From NCBI GenBank assembly GCA_002245135.1, contig NGBS01000922.1, positions 1 to 36,754 of the forward strand: 36,754 nucleotides of DNA. Reading direction: 5' to 3'. Of the stretch, positions 1 through 35,933 are shown piece after piece (positions within the stretch are counted from its first letter, which is position 1; each line of letters begins with the position of its first letter). Source of the DNA: Proteromonas lacertae. Taxonomy: Eukaryota. The notes under the pieces were generated by a model. The model was not told where the DNA came from. It saw nothing but the letters and a program-made list of their open reading frames with translations, and did not search any database. Made by a program: the position numbers and the translations under genes.

Positions 1-11
1 GTATCTTTGGT

Positions 12-2080
12 ATGTCTTTAGATGGATATCCAAAGACAGGTTCAGGTAGAAGAAAACATGTTCATTTCAAACATAAGAAACATCACAGAAGAAATAAACT
101 AAAATTAGAGAGTATCCCACGGAGGCATCTCTTGGCTACTAAGAAATTAGGTGGTAATAGTGGTATTATACCATTAAGAGTGGGTCAAAGTGTTGGTCCT
201 AATGAGCATGTCATTATTACTAATCCAAGACAACAAATGTATGATGCTGCTAGTGCTGCTTATAATGGAACATCACAATTACAGCCAAGTCAAATACCAG
301 AATATATTCAACCATATATACCAAAAGAAAACTGTAGGATATGATTATAATTGGAATTATGATAAATTATTTAGTCCAGGTTTGAATAGACAAGCTCGAA
401 AAGAAGTTCAATATGCTTTAACTAATAATTATGCTTCTTTGTTGCCTAACAATTATCATATTAATTTTTATGATATGCTAGATCGTGAACATAAAACAGG
501 AAATTTAAGAGGAACATTCCCATTAGCAACATTAGATACATCTAATCCAAGAAGCTATCTTTTGAATTGGCCTGAATATGTTACAGAAGCAGATGTTTCA
601 GATATGATAATGGAATGAATAGAGTTACAGATCCTTTGTTGATGGAGTAAGTAAGATCAATCAATATTCAGATCCATATAATTTTTGATCCGAATCGAGC
701 TGAAAAAGTAAAAGAATATATTGCATTGAATAATCAAAAGGCACAAAGATATATGGATGATCAAGAGATATTAGAAAGATCAAAATTTTATAGATGGGCA
801 TTAGATCCAAAAAATCAAGAACTGGTGAATAGTGCTATAGATATAGATAAAGAACCGCATACATGGATTAATGAAGATAAATATAGAGAACTGAATGAAA
901 TAGCATCACAAAATAGTAAAGACTTCATTAACTTGATTATAACAGAGAGAAGTTAGGTCACTCACTTCCTCAAGAGTGGGTGAATGCAGATAATAAACAA
1001 AAAATATGAAATAGCTATTGGTTTAGTGAAAACTGCTTGTAGTTCATGGGCACAATTTGAAAATTCACAATTTCAAAAAGCACTTGATTCATTACGTGAA
1101 TCTGATTTTATGGGTTTTACTGGTAATTTGTTCCTGTGTGTAGAGAATGTATTTAGGATATTTCCGCAAATATACTATACAATAAATTCATATTTGGTTG
1201 GTGGAGTTACTCCTCAAATGTTTGAAGTAGATCATGCAATGAAATATGTTCGTGCAATAGTAATGACATGTTTAGCTTATTGGTTATGGAAAAAAATCTA
1301 AACTACCAACATCAGGGTTCTTGTATGTAATGTGGTACTTCATTTCGACTACTATGAGATAATTCGTATGCTGTCAGGTGGTAGATTGCCTGCTATCACT
1401 GACTTGTATTATGGTAATTCAGAAAAAGTTAAGTCAATGTTACCTGAAGCAATTCAAAAATCATGGTTACCTGTAGACTTGTTGTATAATTTTGGTGTTT
1501 CATTTATGTTCAATACTCATCCATATGTTCGATACTTATTTCAATTAGTTCCATTCTTCTACAAATTTTCTAATATTGGAAATATAGATGCAAAAAATGT
1601 AGGTGATACATTAGAAACAGCAGCAACTGTAGCTGCAGCTGCAAATGGAGGTGATGCAACAACTGCTGCAGCAGCAGTTAAAGGTATTAGTGAATTATCA
1701 AAAGCTATGCCATCAATGGCCAAAAAACTGCTGTTGCAGCTGATCCAACAGGTACATTACAAACTGTTGCAGGTATAGGAACAGTATTCAGTGCATTGAC
1801 TGCTTGTTTTGGTTTGCTAGATGCAGGTGGTTTATTAAACTGGTTAAAACCAACACCATATCAACACAAGAATGCAATCAAAATGGATAACTACGTGAAA
1901 CGTTCACAACAAACAATTCCAAGTTCACTCACTAATTTTGGTAGAGCAGTGAGTAATTTAGATCAAGCAAAACAACTCAGTGAAGCTATGAGTTACTTTG
2001 GAATAGGTAATGGAAATAATAAAAAAGTAAAGAAATTAATTTCACGTAGGAAAGTTTTGTATAACAGTATCACTTCAGAT
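12..2080 (+). pseudogene. Long ORFan of roughly 700 codons broken by many 1-nt indels; basic N-terminus; runs in frame into the protease domain
   Basis: ORF pieces 12-344, 190-618, 726-956, 984-1301, 1332-1778 and 1796-2215 abut one another. Several joins can be repaired by single-base shifts (e.g. ...PKE/TVGYDY near 330, ...DP/FVDGVSK near 635). The N-terminus GSGRRKHVHFKHKKHHRR is highly basic. Confidence 0.55.
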
Positions 2081-2573
2081 GCCTTATCGAATTTTGATAT
2101 AGAGTTAATTGTGAAAAATGAGTTCAATAATTTCCATGGAAAGTTCATGGGAGTGTTCTGCTGGGACGAGCTTGTACTTCCTATACCCAAAAAGAAGAAT
2201 CAATGGGAATCATAATCAATACACTCACAACACAAGCTAGCCCTGATTCTATAGGTCATTGGGTGGCTTTAGTAGTTGACAATATCAAAAAGTAATTCCT
2301 GTACTATGATTCATTTGGTGAAGATCCTCAACACTTGGAAGAATTTAAAAAAATTTGAAAAAATTAAAAAAGTATCATAATGAAAAGTATGAACTTAAAA
2401 TCAATGGAGTACAGAATCAAAATTCAAATACTGCCAACTGTGGTTTTTTTGCTATTAATTTTTTGAAAAATATTTTAAGAGATCAGTGTAGTTTCAAAAA
2501 GGCTACTGACTATAATACAATAGTAGGTGAAGCAAAAATTAGGTTAATGAAAAAACAATTTGGATTAATATAA
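2081..2573 (+). pseudogene. Adenain/Ulp1-like (clan CE) viral maturation cysteine protease, disrupted
   Basis: Motifs ALSNFDI..F.GVF..D, IINT...GHWVAL (from 2254), YYDSFG (2302-2319) and QNQNSNTANCGFF give the His-Asp-Cys order. Disrupted by a frameshift near 2190, an in-frame TAA at 2293-2295 and a frameshift near 2350. Confidence 0.85.
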
Positions 2574-2609
2574 TATATATAATATAAAATTATTACTTAA
2601 TTATTTTTT

Positions 2610-3017
2610 TTATGTGTGGTGAAATATTGTATGAGTTTCAATATATTCTATCATCTCTGTATCCATATGACTACATTTGAAGAATATTGGCATCTTACCA
2701 TTAAAACATCTTTGTGGCATTCTAATGATTACTTTTTTCATTGTTGGTGTGTATGTAACTTTCGGATAATCTCTATTTCCTAAGTCACAAGGACCTACAA
2801 ACACTAATATCAAACGTTGACTCATGATCATGTTAATCATTTTGTGTGTTAACTCAAAATACCATTGATATATAGGTTTTCGATGATAAAAAAATATAAG
2901 GAATTGTAGGCTATACAAATCTAAGTATATGTCTGGGCCACTTAAATGATATTTCTTTGTTACCTTGGATTCAAGTTCTGGTAATTTATATTCAATCTGT
3001 GGTGGTAGTGTAAGCAT
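2610..3017 (-). CDS. Hypothetical protein (about 135 aa from the ATG at 3017)
   Basis: Open frame with protein-like composition from MLTLPPQ. The upstream extension to 3176 is low complexity and overlaps a candidate ncRNA. Confidence 0.5.
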   Translation of the reverse strand: MLTLPPQIEYKLPELESKVTKKYHLSGPDIYLDLYSLQFLIFFYHRKPIYQWYFELTHKMINMIMSQRLILVFVGPCDLGNRDYPKVTYTPTMKKVIIRMPQRCFNGKMPIFFKCSHMDTEMIEYIETHTIFHHT

Positions 3018-3081
3018 ATATAAAAAATAGAATATACTATATGTATATGTATAATAAAATATTTTTAAAAAAAAAGAAATT

Positions 3082-3175
3082 AAAAAAATGGGATTACTAA
3101 TAGTCTGTGCTAGGAATCGAACCACTAATGCCAGCTGCATGACTCTTTTTTCCTTGCACAGTCTATCAGATCCCA
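3082..3175 (-). ncRNA. Candidate Pol III small RNA B (about 86 nt plus oligo-U)
   Basis: On the minus strand: perfect B-box GGTTCGATTCC (3123-3113); terminal stem TGGGAT/ATCCCA, CTGATAG/CTATTAG, CTGTGC/GCACAG, AGGA/TCCT; T7 terminator immediately after the stem (3088-3082). Confidence 0.6.
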
Positions 3176-3182
3176 ATTAAAT

Positions 3183-3382
3183 AAAAAAAAGGGCATTTAG
3201 ATATACCGTGCCAGGATGATTCAAGCCGAATTTCAATGGCGCAATATTAAACAACACACATCCAAGTAGTAATTATTATTAAACTTCCATAAATTCCTTG
3301 TGAAATTAATTTAATAAATAAATAAATAAATAATTATAAATTAGAAACGCAGCCCTCATCGTAGCTAGTCTATCCAATGCCC
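3183..3382 (-). ncRNA. Candidate Pol III small RNA A (about 192 nt plus oligo-U), long rod-like terminal stem
   Basis: On the minus strand 5' GGGCATTGGATA pairs with 3' TATCTAAATGCCC. The stem continues GCTA/TGGC, GATGA/TCATC, GGGCTG/CGGCTT, TTTC/GAAA. T8 follows directly (3190-3183). No internal T4 in 192 nt. Shares the TTGGG...GATAGACT 5' motif with RNA B. Confidence 0.55.
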
Positions 3383-3431
3383 AATAATAAAAACAACATA
3401 TACAATATATAGCATAATAAAAATTTATTCG

Positions 3432-4547
3432 TTACAATATTGATTTGTCTCCCTTCTTTCTCTTGGGTCTCTCCAGTATTTTTCTAAACCATGTGGTTGG
3501 TGCATCATCTTTTCTCACTAACTGCAACTCATAGTGTTTGAATCGAATTAATGAAAAACCTTGAATGTCATTCCCATTGATATCACCTAAATTGTATGAA
3601 TATCGATTTTTCTTGATTATCTTATATACATTGTCTGACCAGTATACGTTCTTATCCATTTTACGTCTTCTCTCTTTGAATCTCACCAAATCACCTACTT
3701 CGAAATTTTGACCAGTATGATCCAATTTTTCATAATTCTTTAAGTTGTAGTTAATTGATTTTTGTAATATTTGTTTTTGTAATTCTGGACTATGGAATAC
3801 CTCATTTGGTGTATATCCTTTAATTCCTGGTAATGGCTTGTTGTTATAGTCATCTATCACTTCCTGTATTATACTATCGAGTTTCAATTTATAATTCATA
3901 TCTGGTATAATATGCTTATCATTGTGATCAATATCTGCCATATATGTAGGTGCATCATATCCCAGATCCACCAAGTGTTTGTACAACAGTCTTTTTATCA
4001 CACTCACTGATCTATCCAATAATGACTCTATTTTATGCTCTGAACCATCTTTTTGAAAATATGAAATTCCTTCAGCATCACATAACTTCTTGATATTTGA
4101 AAAACTAGCATCAGCATCTGATAGAATACTTACCACATTTTTATGTGTTTTGTTTCCATAGGCATCTGTTTCATAATACCACTTCTGAAATGCATCCAAT
4201 GTAATATCACCATATTTATTAGGCATAAATAGTGCCCATACTTTTCTTGAATTCATTTCGATAAAATACAAATGTTCCATATCAGGTAAGAAAAACACTA
4301 TATCCATTTGGAAGTACCCAGGCTTTTTGATAGTTGCGAATGGATTATTTTTTTTATATTTGAAATCAACAATTTGTTTTCCAGGTTGTCTCCTTAAGTA
4401 TTCACGTACTACATCTGGTGGTGGAGCTATATCATTCATACTAGACAAATGTTGTGTCATTTTGACAAATTCATTTTCATTAAGGTAATAATATTTTTTA
4501 TATAGTTCATCTAAGCGTGATCGATATTGGGCAATTTGGTTTGACAT
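3432..4547 (-). CDS. Retroviral-like (rve) integrase of Polinton/Ginger type, intact
   Basis: Motifs PGYFQMDIVFF, EMNSRKVWA, ILSD, LLDRSVSVIKR, YNNKP...TPNEV and FEVGDLVR. The ATG at 4547 aligns with the start of the second integrase (LYKKYYYLN vs LYKTYGYLN). The frame stays open to 4805. Confidence 0.88.
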   Translation of the reverse strand: MSNQIAQYRSRLDELYKKYYYLNENEFVKMTQHLSSMNDIAPPPDVVREYLRRQPGKQIVDFKYKKNNPFATIKKPGYFQMDIVFFLPDMEHLYFIEMNSRKVWALFMPNKYGDITLDAFQKWYYETDAYGNKTHKNVVSILSDADASFSNIKKLCDAEGISYFQKDGSEHKIESLLDRSVSVIKRLLYKHLVDLGYDAPTYMADIDHNDKHIIPDMNYKLKLDSIIQEVIDDYNNKPLPGIKGYTPNEVFHSPELQKQILQKSINYNLKNYEKLDHTGQNFEVGDLVRFKERRRKMDKNVYWSDNVYKIIKKNRYSYNLGDINGNDIQGFSLIRFKHYELQLVRKDDAPTTWFRKILERPKRKKGDKSIL

Positions 4548-4832
4548 TTGGTCTTCATACGAAGCCTCTCTTGTTGGATGTGTAATATTCGGTGCTCCAT
4601 GGTTAATATATGTTGCAAGTGATAAGTTACCATTTGTAGGTAACGGTTTGACAGGAGATGGGTTTGGGTTGCTATATGAGCTGTATAAATGTAATTCATT
4701 ATGATTATTATCTAAATTAATAGAGTTATATATCTTTATAACAACATTTAAAAAATATATATCCGTTTCATATATATATACATATAACATTTGTTCATTG
4801 TTCAACGTTATTTCCCTTTCAATTCACTTATT

Positions 4833-5619
4833 ATGAGCAACTGGAAGATACTATACAAAAACAGCTTCATTAATGATCCAAATCCGAGCATATATAAAGT
4901 TTTATGAGAGAATTTTAAGACGATTGTAGAACATGAGAAAGATTTGCAACGATATAGGTATAATATATTATTATATGTCTATAGCTGGAATGGTAACTTC
5001 AGTATAAGGCGTTTCACTACATGGTACAAAAGATTTATAGAAATTGAAAAGATTGTTGATCGTCATGAAAGGTTAAAGATGTCCAGAGTGTTGATGTCTG
5101 TCCTGCTATGTAATATCATGTATAAAGAGGATCTGGACAAAAGCATCGTATATCCATTTAATATATATTTCAATTTTGAATCAATAGTATGATCGTATGC
5201 TTGACCATGCAATGGAGGATATGATAGAATTAACTAATATGTATACAATATATTTCGGTGACAACGATTTAGCAAAATGCGAAAAAGAAGAAAACAAGAA
5301 TTCGAAAGGAGATATAGTTTACAGAAGTACTGCTGAAAGTATGGTAAGTAGTAAAGTCTCTGTAGCATCGTTGTTTGATAATCTGGATGATGATGATGAT
5401 GACAACAACAAGTTGTTAAAGGTGGTATCGACAAAAAGAAAGTGCAGTACATCTAAAACTCCAAGATTCAAAAGAAAGAAAATATATCAAAAAAACATTT
5501 CAACCAAAAACCAAAAACAAGAAGATAGTACTACAGAGGAAGATGATGATGATAACTTCTCACAATTTATAGTAGATGATGATGAGGAGGAGGAGCCAGA
5601 GTACCAAAATGATTATTAA
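4833..5619 (+). pseudogene. ORFan with acidic/basic C-terminus; candidate 40-nt intron (5148-5187) and an in-frame TGA (4905-4907)
   Basis: ATG 4833 is in frame with ORF 4944. Removing GTATATCC...CAATAG (5148-5187) joins DLDKSI to YDRMLDHAM in frame with ORF 5197-5619. Confidence 0.55.
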
Positions 5620-5795
5620 TCTCTGGTCCTAATTGGTTCAAATGATAGATTGTGTTTGTGTGGGAGTGTTGTTTTCATAATTTACATAATTAATTAGCAT
5701 TATAACAAGTCTTATAAGAAATTTCAATAATAGAAAAATAGATGCGTTTCGAGATTTGACTTGAACTCCATTTTTTTTGTTTTGTTTTTTATTAC

Positions 5796-5998
5796 ATAGG
5801 ATGGTCACCATATGTTGTCATATCACACAGTATGGTGGCCATCCTATCTATCATTGTTTTTTGAATTTTTTTAAGAAAATTAGATTTCGATTATGTTTTA
5901 TTGTCTAATTATGTTTCTAAGGGTGAAAAAACAATAGGGGGAAATGAATACAAAAATTACAAAAAAATAGGGGTTTCAAATTGTACTCATTTTCCCCT
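5796..5998. repeat. Two adjacent stem-loops (17-bp and 18-bp arms)
   Basis: ATAGGATGGTCACCATA (5796-5812) pairs with TATGGTGGCCATCCTAT (5831-5847), one G.T pair. AGGGGGAAATGAATACAA (5936-5953) pairs with TTGTACTCATTTTCCCCT (5981-5998), one mismatch and one G.T pair. Confidence 0.8.
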
Positions 5999-6491
5999 TT
6001 CTTTCATTATACACTTTTCATTTTTATACTATTTTAAAAGCTTATAGCAATAGTAGACATCGGGATAAAGGTTTTAAATAGAAAAGGAATACCTACTTAT
6101 TGCATTTACCTGCTTAAAATTTATTTTGAAAAAACAGGCTTGAATGAGGCTTGAATCATTCATAACTCATTAAGAATAACAGCATTATGTAATTAGTTTG
6201 TTTCTAAAGGGATTATAAGGTTGCATGATTATTATTGCTTACGCTTCGATCGATAAGAATTGCTAGAATGTTGAACTCAACGGAGATTGTTAAGAAGGTA
6301 TTTACAATTGTTAATGCTTGAGATTCCCTTTTGAGTTTCCATGATTCCCAGGAGTATTTTTATTCAGAATGGAGTGAATAATGCAATCATTTAATAGTGC
6401 AATATTTTTATAAGTTCAATTTTTCAATATTTTTAGTCTCTGTTATTAATTGTATATCAAATCCTGAAGTATGATGATTATGACTTTTAAC

Positions 6492-8250: not shown

Positions 8251-9629
8251 TGCACAGTTTGTCAGAGTAGGCAGTTTGTTTAACAGACACTTTTAAAACA
8301 AACTAAATTTATATTCTTACTTATTTTGATAAATAATTGTTACTTTAATACTTACTTTGTAATATAACTTATGTCTGCAATATACTCCCCTTCACAAATT
8401 ATGACATACAATTATTTCATTTTTTCGTTTATTATTTGATTTTCTTGTTTTATTAAGTGTTATAGAAGGAAACATTATTCATCTATCTCATAAAAATAAA
8501 GTAGGTAATTTCAAGATTATGTTTGTCAATTTATAAAGTCCATATAATAGTAGAATCAAAAATGTGTTTGGCTTGGCCATCCCATTCCCTTTTTATACTA
8601 TACATATGTATTGTCTTTATTTTTTGTACTATTTACAAGCTTGACATGATAGAGTTTTTATAAAATAAAAGAAAACTATCAATAATTCAGCCAAAAAAAA
8701 TATATAACCAAAAATAATAAAAAGAACTAAACTATCTGTTTTATTCTTTTAATTTTTATTTCTCACTTTTTGAAATGTCTCTTTATCTATTGATTTTTAT
8801 ATCATAAATCTATTGCTACCTTATAGGTAATCAACAAAATTTTAATTTTAGACTGATCAAATAACTTTTTCATAATTAAAAATCGAAAAAACAAAAATCG
8901 AACGATTTCAATAAATTATGGGGTTGAAGACGTCCAAAGCCAAATCAAGTATATCATTAGTGGGCAAGCTGTTATAGATTATATCTTGAGAAGTCAAGTT
9001 AATGGCATTACAATTCAATCTGCCAAAACACTCAGAAATGTGTTGGTGAAGAACAGCTTAATCCCCTCAATAGTATCATTAAGTACAAATCATGGAAGAT
9101 CTATTTTGGAAATGGTGGAGTTTGTCCAAGCTTGACCCAAAAGAACGTTGAAGAAAGATTAATGACAGTATCTCAAAACATATTCTTGGATATAAATGTT
9201 AAAAGTGTTGGATGGAGTATTTCTGGAAAACTATTATTAGGAAACGCAGGTGTTATGGTCTGGGGTGCCTTTTCAGAGTATGGATTCACTGATCTGATGG
9301 TTATGCAGAGTAAGGGAATAAATTCAGTTAGATATTGTCGATTTCTAAAGAAAACTTTACCGCCTCTAATTCAACAGCATCCATTGGTTAACCATCAGAG
9401 ACAATGTTATTTCTTACAAGACAATGCCAGCATACATAAAAGTAGGTATACCACAGAATATCTTCAAAGGAACGGTTGGAAACCTATCAGACATCCACAG
9501 TTTTCTCCAGACTTAAATCCTATTGAAAAGGTCTGGGCGACTCTAAAACACAAGATTAATGATGTAAAAAAGTCGTTATTTAACCAAGTTGTTTCAAGCT
9601 TCATTTATATAGAATGTAATAATTATTAA
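8251..9629 (+). mobile_element. Tc1-family (DD34E) transposon copy A, internally deleted
   Basis: VMVWGAFS, LQDNASIH and FSPDLNPIEKVW with 34 residues between D and E. The first catalytic D (FSDES) and the N-terminus are deleted relative to copy B. Diverged TIR-like sequence at 8251-8385. Region 8543-9220 matches 25053-26060 apart from deletions. Confidence 0.85.
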
Positions 9630-9917
9630 ATCATTCTATATAAAAAAAGAAATGTAAAAAATGTCTTATGATCAACATTATGTTGTTCTAATCATTTCAG
9701 CTAATGTATTTTAGTCTATATTAGCTAAATATGTATTTAGTTTGCTTCAAAAATTTCTAGAAAACAAACGGCTCAAATATTCAAACTATTTATATTAACA
9801 AAAAAGTATATTGCAGAGGTAGGTCATATAACAAAGTAAGTATAAAAGTAACAATTTTTCATCAAGACAAGTAAGAATATACATTTAGTTTGTTTTAAAA
9901 GTGTCTGGTAGACAAAT
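9610..9917. repeat. Partial copy of the 637-bp MITE (spacer plus TIR lacking the terminal ~28 bp)
   Basis: Near-identical to the reverse complement of about 24006-24360, with one deletion of about 47 nt covering the CAAGCC motif. Confidence 0.9.
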
Positions 9918-10008
9918 TCTTTGTTCTGCATTATAGACAAATTTTTTTGATGAAGTGGGTATAGTGGGTATAGCGTTCTGATGATTTTATAAATTCAATT
10001 CTTCATAA

Positions 10009-10695: not shown

Positions 10696-11766
10696 ATGAT
10701 AATAAAACAGTTATATTATTTCTTTATTCTATTTTATTTTATATATAGATATAGCATATATTTTCACAAAAAGAATTATGGTGTATTATATAGTATTGAG
10801 TCAGCTGGAGGATTAGGAAATAAACTATTGGGAATAACTGGAACATATTTATTATCAGTTTTGTCTGATAGGCAGTTTCATTGTATATGAAATGTCTATA
10901 TAGCAATAGTTATAGGAAGTGTAATAAAACAATATATAAATCTAAGTATTGTTGATCCTACTCCAATAAAATCTATTGATAAGATTAATAAGTCGCTAGT
11001 TTTTTCATTTTATCGATATTGTATTAATCCTGTTGATATGGTAATCACTATTAGTAGATCAAAACTTCTTTCTATATCGATTGAGAGTATACATGATTTA
11101 GTTCCAACCATAATATGTGCAAGAATTTTTTATAACAAGTTAAAGTATTTTAAATTCATTAATTGCTCAAAATTAGAAGATATTAAAGGTCAAATACTTG
11201 AAGTTAACTATATTTTGTTAAACTATTATTTTACATTTTATAAAAAGCATATTAGGAAAGGTCAAAAATTCTTCAAAAGAGATAACAATGTTATATATGT
11301 AGGTATACATACTCGTTTTAATGATGATTGCCTTAAAAGAAAATGTTTAATAGATGGGAAGGTAATATACAAAATTAGAAAAATGGCAACAAGATTATGT
11401 AGAAGTAAATATAATTTCATTTTGAGTTCATTTAATTCTAATTTTTCTAAAAAATTTCTTAGTGTAAATAATAGTACAATAATATACAACCCTAATGTTG
11501 ATATTAAGCATACATATCTCTCAGGAAGTATGAATCAAGTAGATATTGAGAAAACAGTTATTGATATATATATAGTGAGTGAATCAGATAAATTAATGTT
11601 AAGTAGTTATTCAACATACTCATTATTGATTCTGTATAAGGGAATATATAGTAGATACAAAAATTGTAAAAGAAAGAAGTATATATTTTGGAATGGAAAA
11701 GAATTATTAGATCATTTGAATAGGTACAAAAGAAAGAAAAGTATATGTCAGAGTATAAAATTATAA
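10696..11766 (+). CDS. Fucosyltransferase of the GT11/GT23/GT37 clan, with one tiny intron (10883-10903 or 10883-10909)
   Basis: GGLGNKL, VGIHTR and DIYIVSESD...SSYSTYS motifs. ORFs 10696 and 11038 share one frame, separated only by TGA 10888-10890, which lies inside GTATATGA...TATAG (21 nt; the 27-nt alternative is also in frame). Confidence 0.8.
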
Positions 11767-17695: not shown

Positions 17696-17944
17696 TTTAT
17701 ACAAGATGGTTTAATAATCGAAAAAATACAAATAAATTCAAGCCTCACTCAAGCCAACTTTTAAATCTAATCATCTCAGTTAATGTATTTCATACAATAG
17801 TATTTATCTCAAAATAGTATATTGTAGACATAGGTTATATGACAAATTAAGTATAAAAATAACAATATGTGTTGTGCATATTAGTATTCTCTTATGGCTT
17901 TAGCTGGATGTATATCAAAAATTACGAATTTAATATAATAAAAG

Positions 17945-22548: not shown

Positions 22549-22848
22549 CATTTCTTATTTTATATAGAAAGATTTAATAATTATTATATTCTAATTATTT
22601 CAGCTAATGTATTTTAGTCTATATTAGCTAAATATGCATTTAGTTTGCTTCAAAAATTTCTAGAAAACAAACGGCGCAAATATTCAAACTATTTATATTA
22701 ACAAAAAAGTATATTGCAGAGGTAGGTCATATAACAAAGTAAGTATAAAAGTAACAATTTTTCATCAAGACAAGTAAGAATATACATTTAATTTGTTTTA
22801 AAAGTGTCTGGTAGACAAATGGCCAACTATGACAAATGGCACACAACA
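22549..22848. repeat. Right half of the MITE (part of the spacer plus a complete 260-bp TIR ending ...CACAACA)
   Basis: Near-identical direct copy of about 24316-24614. Confidence 0.92.
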
Positions 22849-22968
22849 ATCTTCTCATGATATTAATAAAACATGTGAAGATGTGCCATATAAATATTTA
22901 TCAAATTTATTAAAAACTAATTTTGAAAAAAGGAACTAAAAAGGGTACTATTCTTTAAATAAACTTGA

Positions 22969-23977: not shown

Positions 23978-24614
23978 TGTTGTGCGCCATTTGTCATAGT
24001 TGGCCATTTGTCTACCAGACACTTTTAAAACAAACTAAATGTATATTCTTACTTGTCTTGATGAAAAATTGTTACTTTTATACTTACTTTATTATATGAC
24101 CTACCTCTGCAATATACTTTTTTGTTAATATAAATAGTTTGAATATTTGAGCCGTTTGTTTTCTAGAAATTTTTGAAGCAAACTAAATGCATATTTAGCT
24201 AATATAGACTAAAATACATTAGCTGAAATGATTAGAACAACTTAATGTTGATCATAAGACATTTAAAATGAAAAAAGAAAATATAGAATCAAGCCTCACT
24301 CAAGCCTATTTTTTACATTTCTTTTTTATATAGAAAGATTTAATAATTATTATATTCTAATTATTTCAGCTAATGTAATTTGGTCTATATTAGCTAAATA
24401 TGCATTTAGTTTGCTTCAAAAATTTCTAGAAAACAAACGGCTCAAATATTCAAACTATTTATATTAACAAAAAAGTATATTGCAGAGGTAGGTCATATAA
24501 CAAAGTAAGTATAAAAGTAACAATTTTTCATCAAGACAAGTAAGAATATACATTTAATTTGTTTTAAAAGTGTCTGGTAGACAAATGGCCAACTATGACA
24601 AATGGCGCACAACA
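23978..24614. mobile_element. Complete 637-bp non-autonomous element (MITE) with 260-bp TIRs and TGT...ACA termini
   Basis: TIRs 23978-24237 and 24355-24614 are nearly perfect, with a 117-bp spacer. GACAAATGGC occurs twice at each terminus. No TSD detected. Confidence 0.92.
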
Positions 24615-25052
24615 ACAATGATTAATCTATAGATACAACAAAATTAATATGATGAGATGATGATTTTTCAGGATATATTACACCAGCTTCAGCAACAGCT
24701 TTAGCAAGATTATGTTACACCAGTTAACCAGAGAATAAGTTCATCTGTTGTGATTGAAGAACTACCACCTAAGATTCTATAAATAACAGTGACTAAATGA
24801 CAAATATAAACTTGTTACTTTTAAACTTACTTTGTTATATATCCTATATCTGCAATATACATTATTTTAGATATTGAAGGAGTTGATCCATTATTTTAGA
24901 GCTAGTAACTGTAAGTGTATTCAATACAGAGGAAGTGATTTGAAGTATAAACATATAGCTTTAGTTGAGATGATAATGATGAGAACATCATTAAATACTG
25001 GATCAGTTACAGACAATGTGAATATATTAATACCTGAAAGTTTAGTTGGAAG

Positions 25053-26220
25053 ATAATAGTAGAATCAAAAATGGGTTTGGCTTGGCCATCCCATCCTCTT
25101 TTAATACAATACATATGTATTGTCTTTATTATTTTGTAGATTTACAAGTTTGACTTGATAGAGTTTTTATAAAATAAAAGAAAACTATCAATAATTCAAC
25201 CAAAAAAATATAACCAAAAATAATAAAAAAATACTAAACTAGCTGTTGTATTTTTTTTATTTTTATTTCTCGCTTTTTGAAATGTCTCTTTATCTATTGA
25301 TTTTTATATCATAAATCTATTGCTACCTTATAGGTAATCAACAAAATTTTACTTTTAGACTGATCAAATAACTATTTCATAATTAAAAATCGAAAAAACA
25401 AAAATACAACGATTTCAATAAAAATAGTCGTTTTGTTTGAATTTTCATTCCCTTTATTTAGATCTTTCTCGCTAATTAGAGCAAATGAGATCCCCAAAAC
25501 AACTATGTAAAGTCACTGTCAAAAAAACTCCTGTTACAGAGTCTGAAAAAGAGAAAATTAGAGCTATGGTAAAACAATCTTGTAGTATTGGAGAAATTGC
25601 CTTAAAAATGGTAAGAACCAAGAGTACTATTTGGAAGTACTTACAAATTATGGGGTTGAAGACGTCCAAAGCCAAATCAAGTATTTCACCACCTAAGGTT
25701 AGAAGAGGGAGAAAGCCAATTATTTTGAACTCTATCATTAGTGGGCAAGCTGTTAGAGATTATATCTTGAGAAATCAAGTTAATGGCACTACAATTCAAT
25801 CTGCCAAAACACTCAGAAATGTGTTGGTGAAGAACAGCTTAATCCCCTCAACAGTATCATTAAGTACTATTCGTCGTTATTGTAAATCATGGAAGATCTT
25901 TTTTGGAAATAGTGGAGTTTGTCTAGGCTTGACCCAAAAGAACGTTGAAGAAAGATTAATGACAGTATCTCAAAACATATTCTTGGATTATAAGACGATT
26001 ATGTTCTCAGATGAATCGATGATTAGACTTAGAAATGTTAAAAGTGTTGGATGGAGTATCTAGAATTTGGAATTAAATTATGTCAAGCCAAGCCACCAGA
26101 CATAATTATGCTTTTAGATATCGTGAAGCATGTATGACATGTCTTTACAAACAGGGTGACTTCGTTCTAGACAATGACATTAAAAGAATTAGAAAGATAA
26201 CAAACATCCCAGAAGAGTAA
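25053..26220 (+). mobile_element. Tc1-family transposon copy B: intact N-terminal part (25485-26063), catalytic core deleted, C-terminal remnant to 26220
   Basis: HTH-like region, RRGRKP linker, SLSTIRR and IMFSDES, then a jump to RIWN*...RYREACMTCLYKQG. Short TIR-like match at 24812-24860. Confidence 0.82.
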
Positions 26221-28029: not shown

Positions 28030-29156
28030 TCATCATCTGATAGATTAACCTTACAATTTGTAAATCCAGGAGGCTCCGACTAGTTCAGAATTTCCTCTCA
28101 CTTTAAGCACCTCGTGTTAATTTGTTGTTATTGCAGCAAAAGGCGGCTGATAGAAATTAAAAGAGACTGCAAGTACTTTTATAAGATCTGTAGTCAATTC
28201 TTTGGAGAACGTAATAAGTATCAACTACTATACAGGATGAGACGTGTGAAACTATGCAAGAATAAGTTGCCTTTGAATGGAGTATTATATTATAGGTGCT
28301 TCAAGATCCACCCAAGGGTCGTAGGTATCATCAAACGAAGAATCATCAACACCGTAAGAAATTTACATTCTCTTATAAGCTTATCGTCAACACTGAAGTA
28401 TGTACCTGAAGTGCCTTTGAAGTCAATGAAGGTAAAGGAGGAGATAACAACTACCCTTAGATGTCGTAGGCCAACATTGTACGTTCCCCTTGAAGATGGA
28501 AGTGGTTGTTGTGCGTTGTTGAGCTAAATGCGCCGTTGAGCGTTAAGAAGACTATTTTTAATTCTAAAATGATAGTGTAACTAATGCATTGTCCCATACC
28601 TCCATGGATTCTTTTGCTAGGTTAAAGTCAGGATCCAAATGAAGTCTTATGTGGTTCTAGTCTACATCCATCTCCATAATCATCTAGCCATCTAGACTAA
28701 CTAGTATCACCGTACCATTACAAGAAGCAAGATCCTTTACCTGGATAGCGTCCTGTTATTCTCAGCCTCGGACTTTAAATGAACTTTAACATCTCGTTTA
28801 TTCTCAGCCTTACAATTAGTTACCAATTTCCTCGGTACTTTAATTGGACTCAACTTCCTTGGTTGTTGTTGTTGTTTACTTCCTCGGGCTGTTCTCATCC
28901 TTGTAAGTCTCTTAGAAGTAGATGGTGGTGTACTTAAAGGTTCATCGTTAGTGTAGTCTGCATCAATGGTTGCTAAAAAGCTTAAGTAATCCACAATGGC
29001 TTTAATGAGTTCTTCCTTTAGTATTGCTTTACCTTGCTATGTAATCACCTGTGATGACTTCCTTATGGTTCTACTACTAGCTCCTTGTTTCTTTACTCGG
29101 AGCTTCTTACCCTCCTTGGATGACTTAAGCAATCGTGTATAAATGATTTTACTCAT
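28030..29156 (-). other. Relatively GC-rich degenerate coding-like segment of unknown origin
   Basis: ATG 29156 is in frame with ORF 28737-28994 across one TAG. Downstream frames are riddled with stops. Composition is visibly less AT-rich than the flanks. Confidence 0.3.
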
Positions 29157-29170
29157 GTAAAATTGATCCC

Positions 29171-31415
29171 AATAGGATAGAAGGTGATGATAAATATATA
29201 GATTCTGATAAGCATAGAGATTCTAGTAATTATATAGAATTATATTTTGATTATTTAAATGACATAGAAATATTAGAATGGTTTAAATACTGTATTGATT
29301 GTGATGATGTTGTTGATGGCAGTAATACTGCTGATGATATTTATATTGATGTTAAAAGTAATGATTTTAAAAATGTATGCAAAAAATATGGTAATATACC
29401 TCGACATATTTATTACCATTATTTATATAATAAAAACTATAAAGATAGAGATTATTGGGAATATTATAAAAAAAGATAAATATATGAAGAAAGATAATTT
29501 GGCAGATAATGATTTATCCAATATTATATTGAAATATGATTTAAAATTAGAATGGGATAATGAATTAAATGATTATTTATTAAAACCAAAAGACCATTTA
29601 AAGTTCATTTCTGATTATGTTGAATATTTCATTGTTTTTAAATTCTATCCACCTAAAGATGAGACAGAGTATGAGGATGTAAAAGATAAGTATATATCAA
29701 TTGGCGATGATAAATATATTAGAAAAATGGCATTAAAACAAATAATAGCATATGAATTAAGTACTGAAATTATGAAGTTGAAATATACAGATTCTGATGG
29801 TAAAGAAATAGTGATTGAAACTAATCCAAATTTCAAATTAAACAATGAAAAACAAGTCTATCTTCATTATCCTCCAAATGCATTTCATTTTGTTTATTAT
29901 ATATTGGACGAAAATAATTCTTTGATTTGATAATGAATGGAATATTTATAAAAATCTTATTAGATGATGAAGTGTTTGATAAGTAAGAAAGATAGAGAAA
30001 AAATGGAAGATTGTATAAAGGTATGAATATATAATATATTTATAATAAAATAGGAATACAGAAGAAGATTTTGATGTATATTACAATGGTAAAGAATTGA
30101 TGTTAATGAGAAAATGTTTCGATGATATGTTGAATTTAATTTATCCTGAAGATTTAGATATGAATTATATACATCAAAGAAATTACTTGGTATTTGGTCA
30201 AAAACAAATTGGTAAATCCGAATTAGCAAAAATTATTATAAACAAAATTCATAAAAAGAATAACAATATTCGAATAGAATTTAGATATATATCTGGACAA
30301 TCTGATAATAGTGAGTATTATTATTTTAAGGATGAAAAAGATTATCCTGATGCAAAAATGATAATAGTATTAGCTAATCCATGTGATAAAAAGTGTAAAA
30401 CATTTCAAAACAAAAGATGTCCTTTGATGATGTATATACCTCCATTTACAATAGAGGAAGTGAAAAAAGTAATGAAATTGAAAGATCTAGCATTAATCAA
30501 ACCTGATAAAAAAGGATTTATTAAATATACATTAATAGAAAAGAAATCAAATGTTTTTGTGGGTGATCATTTAAAAAGAAGAGTAAGTTTATATCTCAAG
30601 AACTATGAATATTACGGAGGATTATTGGAAAATATAATTATGATATGAAGAAGTGTGACAGAGAAATAAATGATATGGACAAAGAAGTGATTGACGATAT
30701 GATCCAAGGTATAAATATATCACCTTATCAAAAGCAAAATATCAAAATATACTTACATATGAGACAGATAAAAATGATGTTACTAAATCTAATAATCTTC
30801 GATTTATCTCTGACACAGTAAGAAGTATTGTATGTAATAAACTATTAACAATTAATTCATTTGATAAATGTCATGAAATGATAGATTTATTGTTTGAAAA
30901 TCAAGATGGAAGTTTTGCTGGAAATTTATATGAAAGAATAATATTATTTTTGATGAAAAATTCTGATGATTTTAGATAAGACAGTTGTTACAAAGCATGT
31001 AATTAGTGAGAAAAAATTGGGTAATGAAATTGATTCATTTAAAGAGAGTCATGATAATTGTGAAATCCCATTTATTGACTTCAGTTATGATATTACTTTT
31101 TCAGATATTGATGCATTACTTGGACCTTTTGGCGTTCAAATTACAGTTGGTAAAGAACATAAATATACATCTGAAATGACAATGACTCTGCAAAATTTGT
31201 ATAGGATTTATAAAAATGGATATAACTATACAGAAAATTATTATAAGAAAACCAATTTAAAATTGAAATTTGATTTTATTTTGATAAGTCCAAGAAAAAA
31301 TGTTGAATTAATAAAAGTATCTAGAAATACAGAAGCATATCCAGATATTTTTCAGAAACTAACAAATGACAATTTAAGGAGAATTTGTATTTTCAGCCTT
31401 AGGTTCAAATTTTGA
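29171..31415 (+). pseudogene. Crinkler/RHS-type (CR) P-loop NTPase plus PD-(D/E)xK nuclease pseudogene
   Basis: Across several frameshifts: YGNIPRHI, MRKCFDDML, LVFGQKQIGKS (Walker A), PPFTIEEV, YYGG, RFISDTV, AGNLYERII and DIDA....VQITVGKEH. Confidence 0.65.
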
Positions 31416-31527: not shown

Positions 31528-31644
31528 GTATAACCGTAAGAATATCACTGTAGGTGGGTAACCCGTACCAGACTATTCTTAGGTGCCTTCTACAGGTAAG
31601 AATAAGCGATTTGAGTGTGAATTAGTTTTTGGTACGGGTTATAC
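31528..31644. repeat. Nested inverted/direct repeat structure
   Basis: TAACCCGTACCA (31559-31570) pairs with TGGTACGGGTTA (31630-31641). Inner stem TATTCTTA/TAAGAATA. An upstream variant GTATAACCGTAAGAATA lies at 31528-31544. Confidence 0.75.
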
Positions 31645-32267: not shown

Positions 32268-32828
32268 ATGAGTGATTTACAAAATGAACTTGATGCTAGT
32301 ATTGAAAAACAAGATGAAATGCCTGATGTAAAATCATTAATTATTAAAGTATTTAAGGATATGCTGGATGGTATGTATTCTGTGATTGAAGAGTATGAAG
32401 ATGATCCAGAATGGAGTGAACAACCAGGTGATGATATTGATATAACAATGGAAGAAGAAGAAGTGAAGGAAGAAAAACAAAGCGAATCTAAACCTAAAAA
32501 AAGAAAGGATATAACAAAGTCAGATTCAGATTCACAAGTATGTAGTACTTGTGGTAAGAAGAAAGCTAATGATGAATTTGGTTATAAGAGTGAAGGTGTA
32601 TTCTATAAATCTTGTACAGAGTGTAGAAATAAGAAGAAGAGAAGATATGAAGAAGTAAAGAAAGGAAGTGATAATAGTGGAGAAGATAAGAAGCGTAAAG
32701 TAGAGAATAGTTCCACTGCCGAGGGTCGACCAAAGGTAGATATTGCTAAAGTAGAAACACCTATAAGTTCTATCCCGGGGGTAGCTACAGTAGATCTAAC
32801 TACATCACCTACTTGTATAATTAATTAA
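32268..32828 (+). CDS. Acidic protein with a C4 zinc ribbon (CxxC...CxxC)
   Basis: CSTCGKKK..EFG......YKSCTECRNK followed by a basic stretch. Confidence 0.7.
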   Translation: MSDLQNELDASIEKQDEMPDVKSLIIKVFKDMLDGMYSVIEEYEDDPEWSEQPGDDIDITMEEEEVKEEKQSESKPKKRKDITKSDSDSQVCSTCGKKKANDEFGYKSEGVFYKSCTECRNKKKRRYEEVKKGSDNSGEDKKRKVENSSTAEGRPKVDIAKVETPISSIPGVATVDLTTSPTCIIN

Positions 32829-34771: not shown

Positions 34772-35933
34772 TTATACGAAATCATTAAATAGTGAATTTT
34801 TCTTATATACTCTACCATATCTACTTTTTCTACCTTCTGGTACTGGTTGAATATCTGGTTCTATAGGTTGTGCTTCATTGTTTATACTATGAATTTGTCT
34901 TAATCTAAACTTGCCATTTGTTGTAATACTATTAACTGATACTCTTTTTATTTCATGTGATTTGAATCTATATGAACCTATATCTCTAGGATTGAATTCT
35001 TTAGGTATTGTTCCATCCAAGTTCTTAACAGAATATGAAAATGGTCCAACTTTGTGTATTTGGTATACTTTATCTGTATAATAAGTAGTTTTTTGAAGTT
35101 TGTTATCTCTACGTTCTTTTATTCTGACAAAATCATTTGGTTTAAAATGAGTATCACTTTTACGCTTCTTTAAGTTTCTAGCATGGGATTCTTTATACAA
35201 TCTATCTTGGACTTCAAAATCATTGAATACTTCATTTGGAGTTAGATTATTGAGTGCAGAATGTGGTTTTGCATTGTAATCATCTACAACAGTATATACT
35301 ATATTACACAATGATTCAATATTGTTAATTTTATCAAATTCTTCATCAGAAAATGTATTAATTTTTCTATAAAACATATCTTTAATAGTTCTCACACATC
35401 GATCCAATATTTTCATTATATTATGTTCATTACGTTCTTTAAGTATAAATCGTATATGATTTTTATTAAACAAATCTAAAAATTTCTTACCATAGATAAT
35501 ACCAGACTCTTCATCTGACAATATACTTCCTACAAAACGAGCGTTTTCATCCTTAGGTTGCATACCCTGATAAAACCATTTTTCAAAACACTGGATACAC
35601 ATCATTTTCTGATTTAGATTTAACATAATATATCCAACACTTACGACTAACAACTTCTATAATTAACAAAAATGGAACTTTTGTATTGTTGAAAAACACC
35701 AAATCTATCTGATATGATCCAGGTAACTTTTCAATTTCATATTTAATTCTATTCCTTTTAGTTGCAGTGATTTGATAATCTGGTTTAGACTCTACAAGTT
35801 CACTACTAGCTTTTTTAATGTCAGATTTTTTAAAGTTATTCTCAAGTTCATTTACAGAGAAATTAATAAAGTCTCGTTTGTTTAAATAACCATATGTTTT
35901 GTATAACTCAATTATTTTATCTTGTAGTGACAT
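34772..35933 (-). pseudogene. rve integrase homologous to 3432-4547, split by a single +1 frameshift at TTT-TGA (35588-35583)
   Basis: PGSYQIDLVFF and EVVSRKCW before the shift; ILSD, ILDRCVRTIKD, YNAKPHSAL.NLTP and FKPNDFVR after it. Skipping one T gives YPVFEKWFY, which aligns to LDAFQKWYY. Confidence 0.88.

Follow-up and report, generated by a model that had tools for sequence, protein, structure and literature searches.

Tandem hairpin units with a Pol III-type layout beside the integrase of a Polinton-like or virophage-like element

The stretch of DNA analysed here in its entirety (36,754 nt, the 36.7-kb window) carries at its left end the genes of a mobile element, and the gap between an intact integrase and the next ORF is occupied by two hairpin-forming units, U1 and U2. 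The features of this region are as follows.

3-2570, plus strand: run of element genes with several frameshifts, with a basic N-terminal ORF and a broken protease at its end
2100-2570, plus strand: that protease, a cysteine protease of clan CE (Ulp1/adenain-like) whose gene is interrupted by an in-frame stop and by frameshifts (three-frame view)
2610-3020, minus strand: 136-aa ORF downstream of U2, its frame open upstream through U2 to 3176
3082-3088, minus strand: T7 run, candidate Pol III terminator of U2
3089-3174, minus strand: U2, candidate Pol III RNA gene of 86 nt, predicted to fold as an unbranched rod hairpin of 33 pairs
3107-3114 and 3208-3215, minus strand: CCTRGCAC, common to the 3' arms of U2 and U1, respectively
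3113-3123, minus strand: perfect B-box of U2, GGTTCGATTCC, within the 3' arm and 24 nt ahead of the terminator
3160-3167 and 3367-3374, minus strand: GATAGACT, identical in the 5' arms of U2 and U1, respectively; the opposite strand differs at 4 of the 8 positions
3183-3190, minus strand: T8 run, candidate Pol III terminator of U1
3191-3382, minus strand: U1, candidate Pol III hairpin RNA gene of 192 nt, an 85-nt core, richer in GC, that is interrupted by an AT-rich insert
3217-3227, minus strand: degenerate B-box of U1, with 3 mismatches including the core C, at a position homologous to the B-box of U2
3244-3347, minus strand: apical insert of U1, 104 nt, 15% GC, flanked by the 4-nt direct repeat TGCG and holding an ATTT microsatellite, with no T4
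3357-3367, minus strand: A-box-like site of U1, TAGCTACGATG, at +16, with 1 mismatch to TRGYNNARNNG; weak alone
3432-4790, minus strand: intact integrase ORF of retroviral type (rve), its stop 49 nt upstream of U1

The integrase ORF had no match of its own in a Pfam scan; rve or rve_3 was matched at E <0.01 by 17 of the 21 integrase relatives scanned. Its predicted model (pLDDT 74.6) matched retroviral intasomes in structure comparison (E 1e-12), with the MELD virus and mavirus integrases among the lower-ranked matches, and comparison with the ESM Atlas placed it with rve clusters (0.96); a PDB sequence search returned no match. The six closest relatives share 42-57% identity with it, and these and the next 10 looked up are Logan proteins only. 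Within the alignment, D163 and D225 are invariant, catalytic-type aspartates, and the third acidic position is Asp in the window protein and most relatives, and Glu in a few. As for the protease, a piece spanning 2179-2355 (with X at the stop) matched Peptidase_C48 (E 3.8e-5), C57 (0.006) and C5 (0.0095), and found only weak SENP1 matches (E ~0.5) in a PDB sequence search. The genes at 3-2570 contain Leu-X-Gly-Gly words, which we take to be like adenain cleavage sites; because their several frameshifts lie seemingly near A-runs and are accompanied by one in-frame stop, decay and long-read error look the same here. The other element ORFs scanned gave no Pfam match, with no capsid, packaging ATPase or pPolB identified among them, and the element extends past the left end of the window. 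The combination of an integrase with a CE-clan protease is the mark of a Polinton-like or virophage-like element, and the Polinton-like setting initially proposed for this DNA is borne out. A second integrase (34772-35933, minus strand) is frameshifted, 30% identical to the first and, by eye, similar to the relative P0065; a plus-strand gene runs toward it, and no B-box hairpin unit follows it. On the other side of the units, a homologue search with the 136-aa ORF was empty, leaving its start fixed by no homologue. The open frame that runs from it through U2 was equalled in 250 of 20,000 shuffles, and this upstream extension resembles AT-rich non-coding DNA.

The original prediction held that the gap contains two back-to-back minus-strand units, and their sizes (192 and 86 nt), their T8 and T7 ends and their coordinates all proved correct, with 8 nt separating the T8 of U1 from the start of U2. 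The start motif that it described as shared, TGGG-N-GATAGACT, has two sites in the window, one in each unit, and none of 100 shuffles yielded two. Both units also fold in excess of shuffled controls, the comparison that the prediction had proposed: on the minus strand U2 reaches -35.7 kcal/mol (z -5.18) and U1 -48.3 kcal/mol (z -3.42), and 0 of 200 shuffles were as good in either case. The stem of U1 is long and interrupted, and its apex is AT-rich. The abundance of G.U pairs claimed for both holds for U1 (13 of 68 pairs), and fails for U2 (3 of 33). For U1, the fold is far stronger on the minus strand (-47.1) than on the plus strand (-33.7), and its z-score falls from -3.4 as minus-strand RNA to -2.3 for the plus strand and -1.2 at DNA energies; this reliance on 13 minus-strand G.U pairs argues for an RNA made from the minus strand. 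The fold of U2 is almost as strong on the plus strand (z -4.5) and as DNA (z -4.8), and by itself U2 does not discriminate between strands, or between RNA and DNA.

Hairpins elsewhere in the window were ranked by scanning 2,446 windows of 90 nt, z-scoring the 60 lowest in energy and ranking the best 40 of these; among those 40, only 5794-5850 and 32465-32554 equalled or exceeded the windows of U1 and U2. The hairpin at 5794-5850 is the window's strongest (z -6 to -8.8), near-perfect, with ~20 pairs, U.G pairs that favor the plus strand, T-run flanks and no B-box; situated 175 nt past a gene end at 5619, it is possibly an mRNA-end or element-end signal. Near it, an imperfect palindrome at 5936-5997 (z -4 to -5), with runs of G and C at its ends, is possibly part of the right end of the element. 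A nested hairpin at 31560-31642 (z -3.3 to -4.4 as RNA, -4.4 to -5.1 as DNA) lies upstream of the genes that cluster next to the second integrase.

Promoter boxes were sought with consensus sequences taken from the available text of PMC12498455. The B-box of U2 is, as predicted, perfect, and is the sole perfect match to GGTTCRANYCY on either strand of the 36.7-kb window; among the seven sites with at most one B-box mismatch, it is the only one embedded in a strong fold (-35, with the others at -6 to -16). The remaining boxes had been described as imperfect, and are so: a B-box with three mismatches, such as that of U1, is at chance level (609 window sites are as good), sites with a single A-box mismatch, such as that of U1, are common (493 in the window), and the first 40 nt of U2 contain no A-box with fewer than two mismatches. 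Given a chance-level B-box in U1, and a fair A-box in U1 only, both units may share the B-box of U2; that is, a single strong B-box lying downstream of the terminator of U1 may serve both genes. The A-box-like site of U1 and the B-box of U2 are 233 nt apart, and both this spacing and the downstream position fall within the description of bovine leukemia virus (BLV) in the available text of PMC12498455, where B-boxes beyond a terminator and A-B distances of up to ~365 bp are reported.

Both units end in T4 or longer with none inside, as in the Pol III type-2 terminator rule, which is informative for U1 only. U1 contains 10 T3 runs and none longer, where 222 of 388 intergenic T runs end at three, and about half of these T3 runs sit in one microsatellite and hence are not independent. 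Intergenic windows free of T4 number 73 of 866 at the scale of U1 (193 nt) and 299 of 973 at that of U2 (87 nt). The absence of an internal T4, which the original prediction offered for both units, is therefore mildly informative for U1, and uninformative for U2. TATA-like words lie upstream of both units, and were not counted since 12% of intergenic 12-mers carry one.

Alignment of their arms shows that U1 and U2 are paralogues. Identity is 69% in the 5' arms and 62% in the 3' arms, and the alignment scores were reached by 6 and 15 of 5000 shuffles, respectively (a direct MAFFT alignment of the two units was left out because it misplaced the insert). In U1, arms that together make up 85 nt (49% GC) enclose the 104 nt at 15% GC, and since this core matches U2 (86 nt) in length, and its arms are homologous to those of U2, we read the 104-nt stretch as an insertion; an ancestral unit of ~86 nt would thus have been duplicated in tandem, with subsequent insertion into the loop of U1. 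The divergence of the arms also permits a test of selection. When arms were swapped between units, the native duplexes totaled -58.2 kcal/mol and the chimeric ones -37.7, with the same direction at all three arm lengths tried. Neutral drift would damage native and swapped pairs equally, yet the native pairs are far better, a sign of selection on RNA structure. Simulations of neutral change, six in all and run at 65-75% identity to match the observed divergence, reached the gap between native and chimeric duplexes in 8 of 12,000 replicates and kept native pairing in 2 of 12,000, under a crude model with arm borders taken from the native folds. Part of this excess of native pairing could also stem from switching of DNA templates between arms. 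U1 and U2 are a non-random pair of RNA hairpins, probably under selection, arranged in a Pol III-type layout.

Comparison with known RNA families places the units in none of them. ARAGORN found no tRNA genes and no tRNA occurs among the Rfam matches, for which reason a tRNA was rejected. Across 2500-4000, Rfam returned seven matches at E up to 10, none of them VA, none below E 0.08 and the best (mir-1542, E 0.087) far below gathering; throughout the window there were none at gathering score. These searches, of the kind that the original prediction had suggested, match neither unit to a known tRNA or Rfam family. The likeness that it drew to VA RNA is less close than supposed. U1 and U2 resemble adenovirus VA RNAI and VA RNAII in belonging to a small DNA virus of the same broad lineage, in being paired genes, and in their internal boxes, terminal stem, oligo-T terminator and wobble-rich stems, as these are described in the available text of PMC7589676. 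The same text gives VA RNA a central domain with a GGGU/ACCC pair, neither tetranucleotide of which is present in U1 or U2, and a box A in the terminal stem with a box B in the apical stem, whereas the B-box of U2 is in the 3' arm of the main stem; U2 is, moreover, unbranched and without a central domain, and the sizes of the two units (192 and 86 nt) differ from those of VA RNA, as does the lack of an Rfam match. Membership of the VA RNA family was rejected on the absent Rfam match, the absent GGGU/ACCC and the B-box in the 3' arm, so that U1 and U2 may act like VA RNA, by analogy, yet are not members.

Their arrangement appears nearer to BLV pre-miRNA-like or vault-like Pol III RNAs. With the Pol III pre-miRNA cluster of BLV, as set out in the available text of PMC12498455, U1 and U2 share clustered rod hairpins, degenerate A-boxes, oligo-T ends, an integrating element and possibly B-boxes beyond a terminator; unlike that cluster, they belong to a protist host and a DNA-virus element and are known from sequence alone, and a sequence relation to it is not expected. 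Vault RNAs, according to the available text of PMC7058938, likewise have internal boxes A and B with little else conserved, a center of variable length and the size of U2; unlike them, U1 and U2 have no Rfam match and are sited in a viral element. Polinton-like viruses (PLVs) and virophages are described in the accessible part of PMC12220804 as carrying tRNAs and some Rfam-type ncRNAs, which also lie inside PLVs and, in the case of the tRNAs, share a promoter type with U1 and U2; ncRNA in PLVs is consequently not new in itself. The units differ from those ncRNAs in that they are not tRNAs and score in no Rfam family, and a survey by the method given there (Rfam gathering cut-offs and ARAGORN) would for this reason miss them. 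Within the literature searched, which included few subscription papers, we found no description of Pol III hairpin RNAs in Polinton-like elements.

We propose that U1 and U2 are two small RNA genes, related by duplication, from which host Pol III makes rod-shaped RNAs that would serve as substrates or decoys for double-stranded RNA-processing machinery, and assign this reading a probability of about 0.55. An ancestral unit of some 86 nt would have given rise to the tandem pair before the 104-nt AT-rich insert entered the loop of U1. Host TFIIIC would bind the B-box of U2, placing Pol III on U2 and, from beyond a terminator, on U1; the transcripts, of ~90 and ~195 nt with oligo-U ends, would close into a stem of ~25-33 pairs with bulges. 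These stems might then occupy, or be cut by, a Dicer-like enzyme or export factor, such that silencing of the element is blunted. This last step is drawn by analogy with the terminal stems of VA RNA and with BLV pre-miRNAs; it is the least supported of the mechanism, and we regard it as doubtful, if conceivable. Of the targets of VA RNA, the two best known, PKR and OAS, are proteins of animals. A word search of the main text of PMC5608401 returned no mention of Dicer, Argonaute or RNAi, and no convincing miRNA-type targets of the 22-nt arm ends were found within the window, where the best scored 5-6.5 mismatch units.

An alternative that we consider unlikely is that the hairpins are cis-elements of mRNA, acting in 3'-end processing of the integrase transcript or, for U2, as a 5' structure of the transcript of the downstream ORF. 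U1 shares its strand with the integrase and begins 49 nt past its stop, the downstream ORF has a frame that stays open across U2, and selection on RNA structure fits this explanation equally well. Transcripts of Mimiviridae end at hairpin polyadenylation signals (PMC4402537, available text), and hairpin signals end 16 genes of Sputnik (PMC6723459, available text); with these signals U1 and U2 have in common a coding-strand hairpin just past a stop in a virophage-like element, and depart from them in that the stems are long, bulged and arranged as a paralogous tandem pair, accompanied by a B-box and T-runs. The hairpin at 5794-5850 is located past the end (5619) of a plus-strand gene, has its stronger fold on that gene's strand and is succeeded by T-runs without a B-box; it indicates that the coupling of hairpin and T-run is not unique to U1 and U2, and keeps this explanation alive. 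It nevertheless leaves unexplained the perfect B-box, the paralogous tandem units with no intervening gene, the T7 and T8 exactly at the stem ends and the avoidance of T4 in the insert of U1, and the upstream extension of the ORF has the look of AT-rich non-coding sequence.

It is quite improbable that the units are instead host Pol III sequences, whether short and SINE-like, vault-like or some other small RNA gene, that inserted into the element or were captured by it and have no viral role. Their terminal stem, internal boxes and variable center do resemble vault RNAs, for which the available text of PMC7058938 describes weak conservation outside the boxes and a central domain that varies in length, and 12 nt around the degenerate B-box of U1 recur at ~6140-6160, in a doublet whose match to this region is probably chance. 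Against this, no additional copy turned up elsewhere in the 36.7-kb window, where the best local scores were 22-28 with gaps, no Rfam family was matched at gathering score or E <0.08, no tRNA was matched, and neither a poly-A tail nor a flanking target duplication is evident around U1 or U2. We also estimate it to be very improbable that the units act at the level of DNA or are relics, whether as inverted repeats that serve replication or integration or as a barrier that binds TFIIIC and holds off silencing chromatin, with any RNA incidental. TFIIIC sites are known to function as barriers, the fold of U2 persists at DNA energies (z -4.8), other palindromes lie in the element (5794-5850 and 5936-5997) and the adjoining structural genes are broken; against this, U1 has no excess fold at DNA energies (z -1.2) and needs its 13 G.U pairs on one strand, and native arms remain fully paired in both units despite divergence of 31-38%.

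Among animal viruses, small RNAs made by Pol III are known in adenoviruses, gammaherpesviruses, BLV and bocavirus. If transcribed, U1 and U2, with their Pol III-type layout, would be a new form of viral Pol III small RNA. A broader reading, in which an integrase-bearing Polinton-like virus lineage of an AT-rich protist encodes its own family of tandem Pol III hairpin RNAs with a shared B-box and an anti-silencing role, arisen far outside animals and possibly widespread among Polinton-like elements, is speculative and on balance rather unlikely. With a case of viral Pol III RNAs in a protist Polinton-like element, such as U1 and U2 would be, the strategy would extend to adenovirus relatives in single-celled hosts, the question of how Polinton-like elements escape silencing would gain a small, concrete and testable target, and PLV surveys based on Rfam and tRNAs would be overlooking a class of genes. 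The co-adapted arms of the two paralogues offer a ready seed for structural search.

Searches for sister loci by protein found none in viral contigs, JGI metagenome contigs or prokaryote genomes. A loose DNA pattern retrieved 19 viral loci, which we rejected as chance matches given their 41-62% GC, the lack of an end-to-end stem with a T-run and the lack of an integrase by tblastn. Stricter DNA patterns gave no matches in metagenome, viral or genome contigs, in exact-match scans of a kind that would miss diverged copies.

The remainder of the window offers some further observations. At least one intron of 27 nt (GT-AG; 10883-10909) joins two ORFs into a frame of 347 codons and, together with the AT-rich composition, marks the host as an AT-rich eukaryote. 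Both traits would suit low-GC Blastocystis, for which PMC12129017 gives 21-23% GC and retained stop codons, and would suit other protists as well. Decayed copies of Tc1/mariner-like elements occur at 8544-9629 and 25053-26063 (DDE_3 and HTH matches), and MITE-like repeats of ~290 nt lie in both orientations at 9655-9946, 22558-22849, 23978-24246 and 24324-24615. The GGCTTGA-type doublet at 6136-6160 is found also on the opposite strand at 17739-17757 and 24289-24307, near MITE-like repeats. A broken gene at 29147-31415 (plus strand) spreads over several frames, with a weak ATPase match (E 0.002) and a possible nuclease-like tail, and presumably resembles Crinkler-type modules. Between 7555 and 27895, at ~21-24% GC, extends a dense cluster of mostly intronless glycan-modifying genes, including GT10 and GT15, an acyltransferase-3 with SGNH, FkbM and other methyltransferases, and a nucleotide-sugar transferase.
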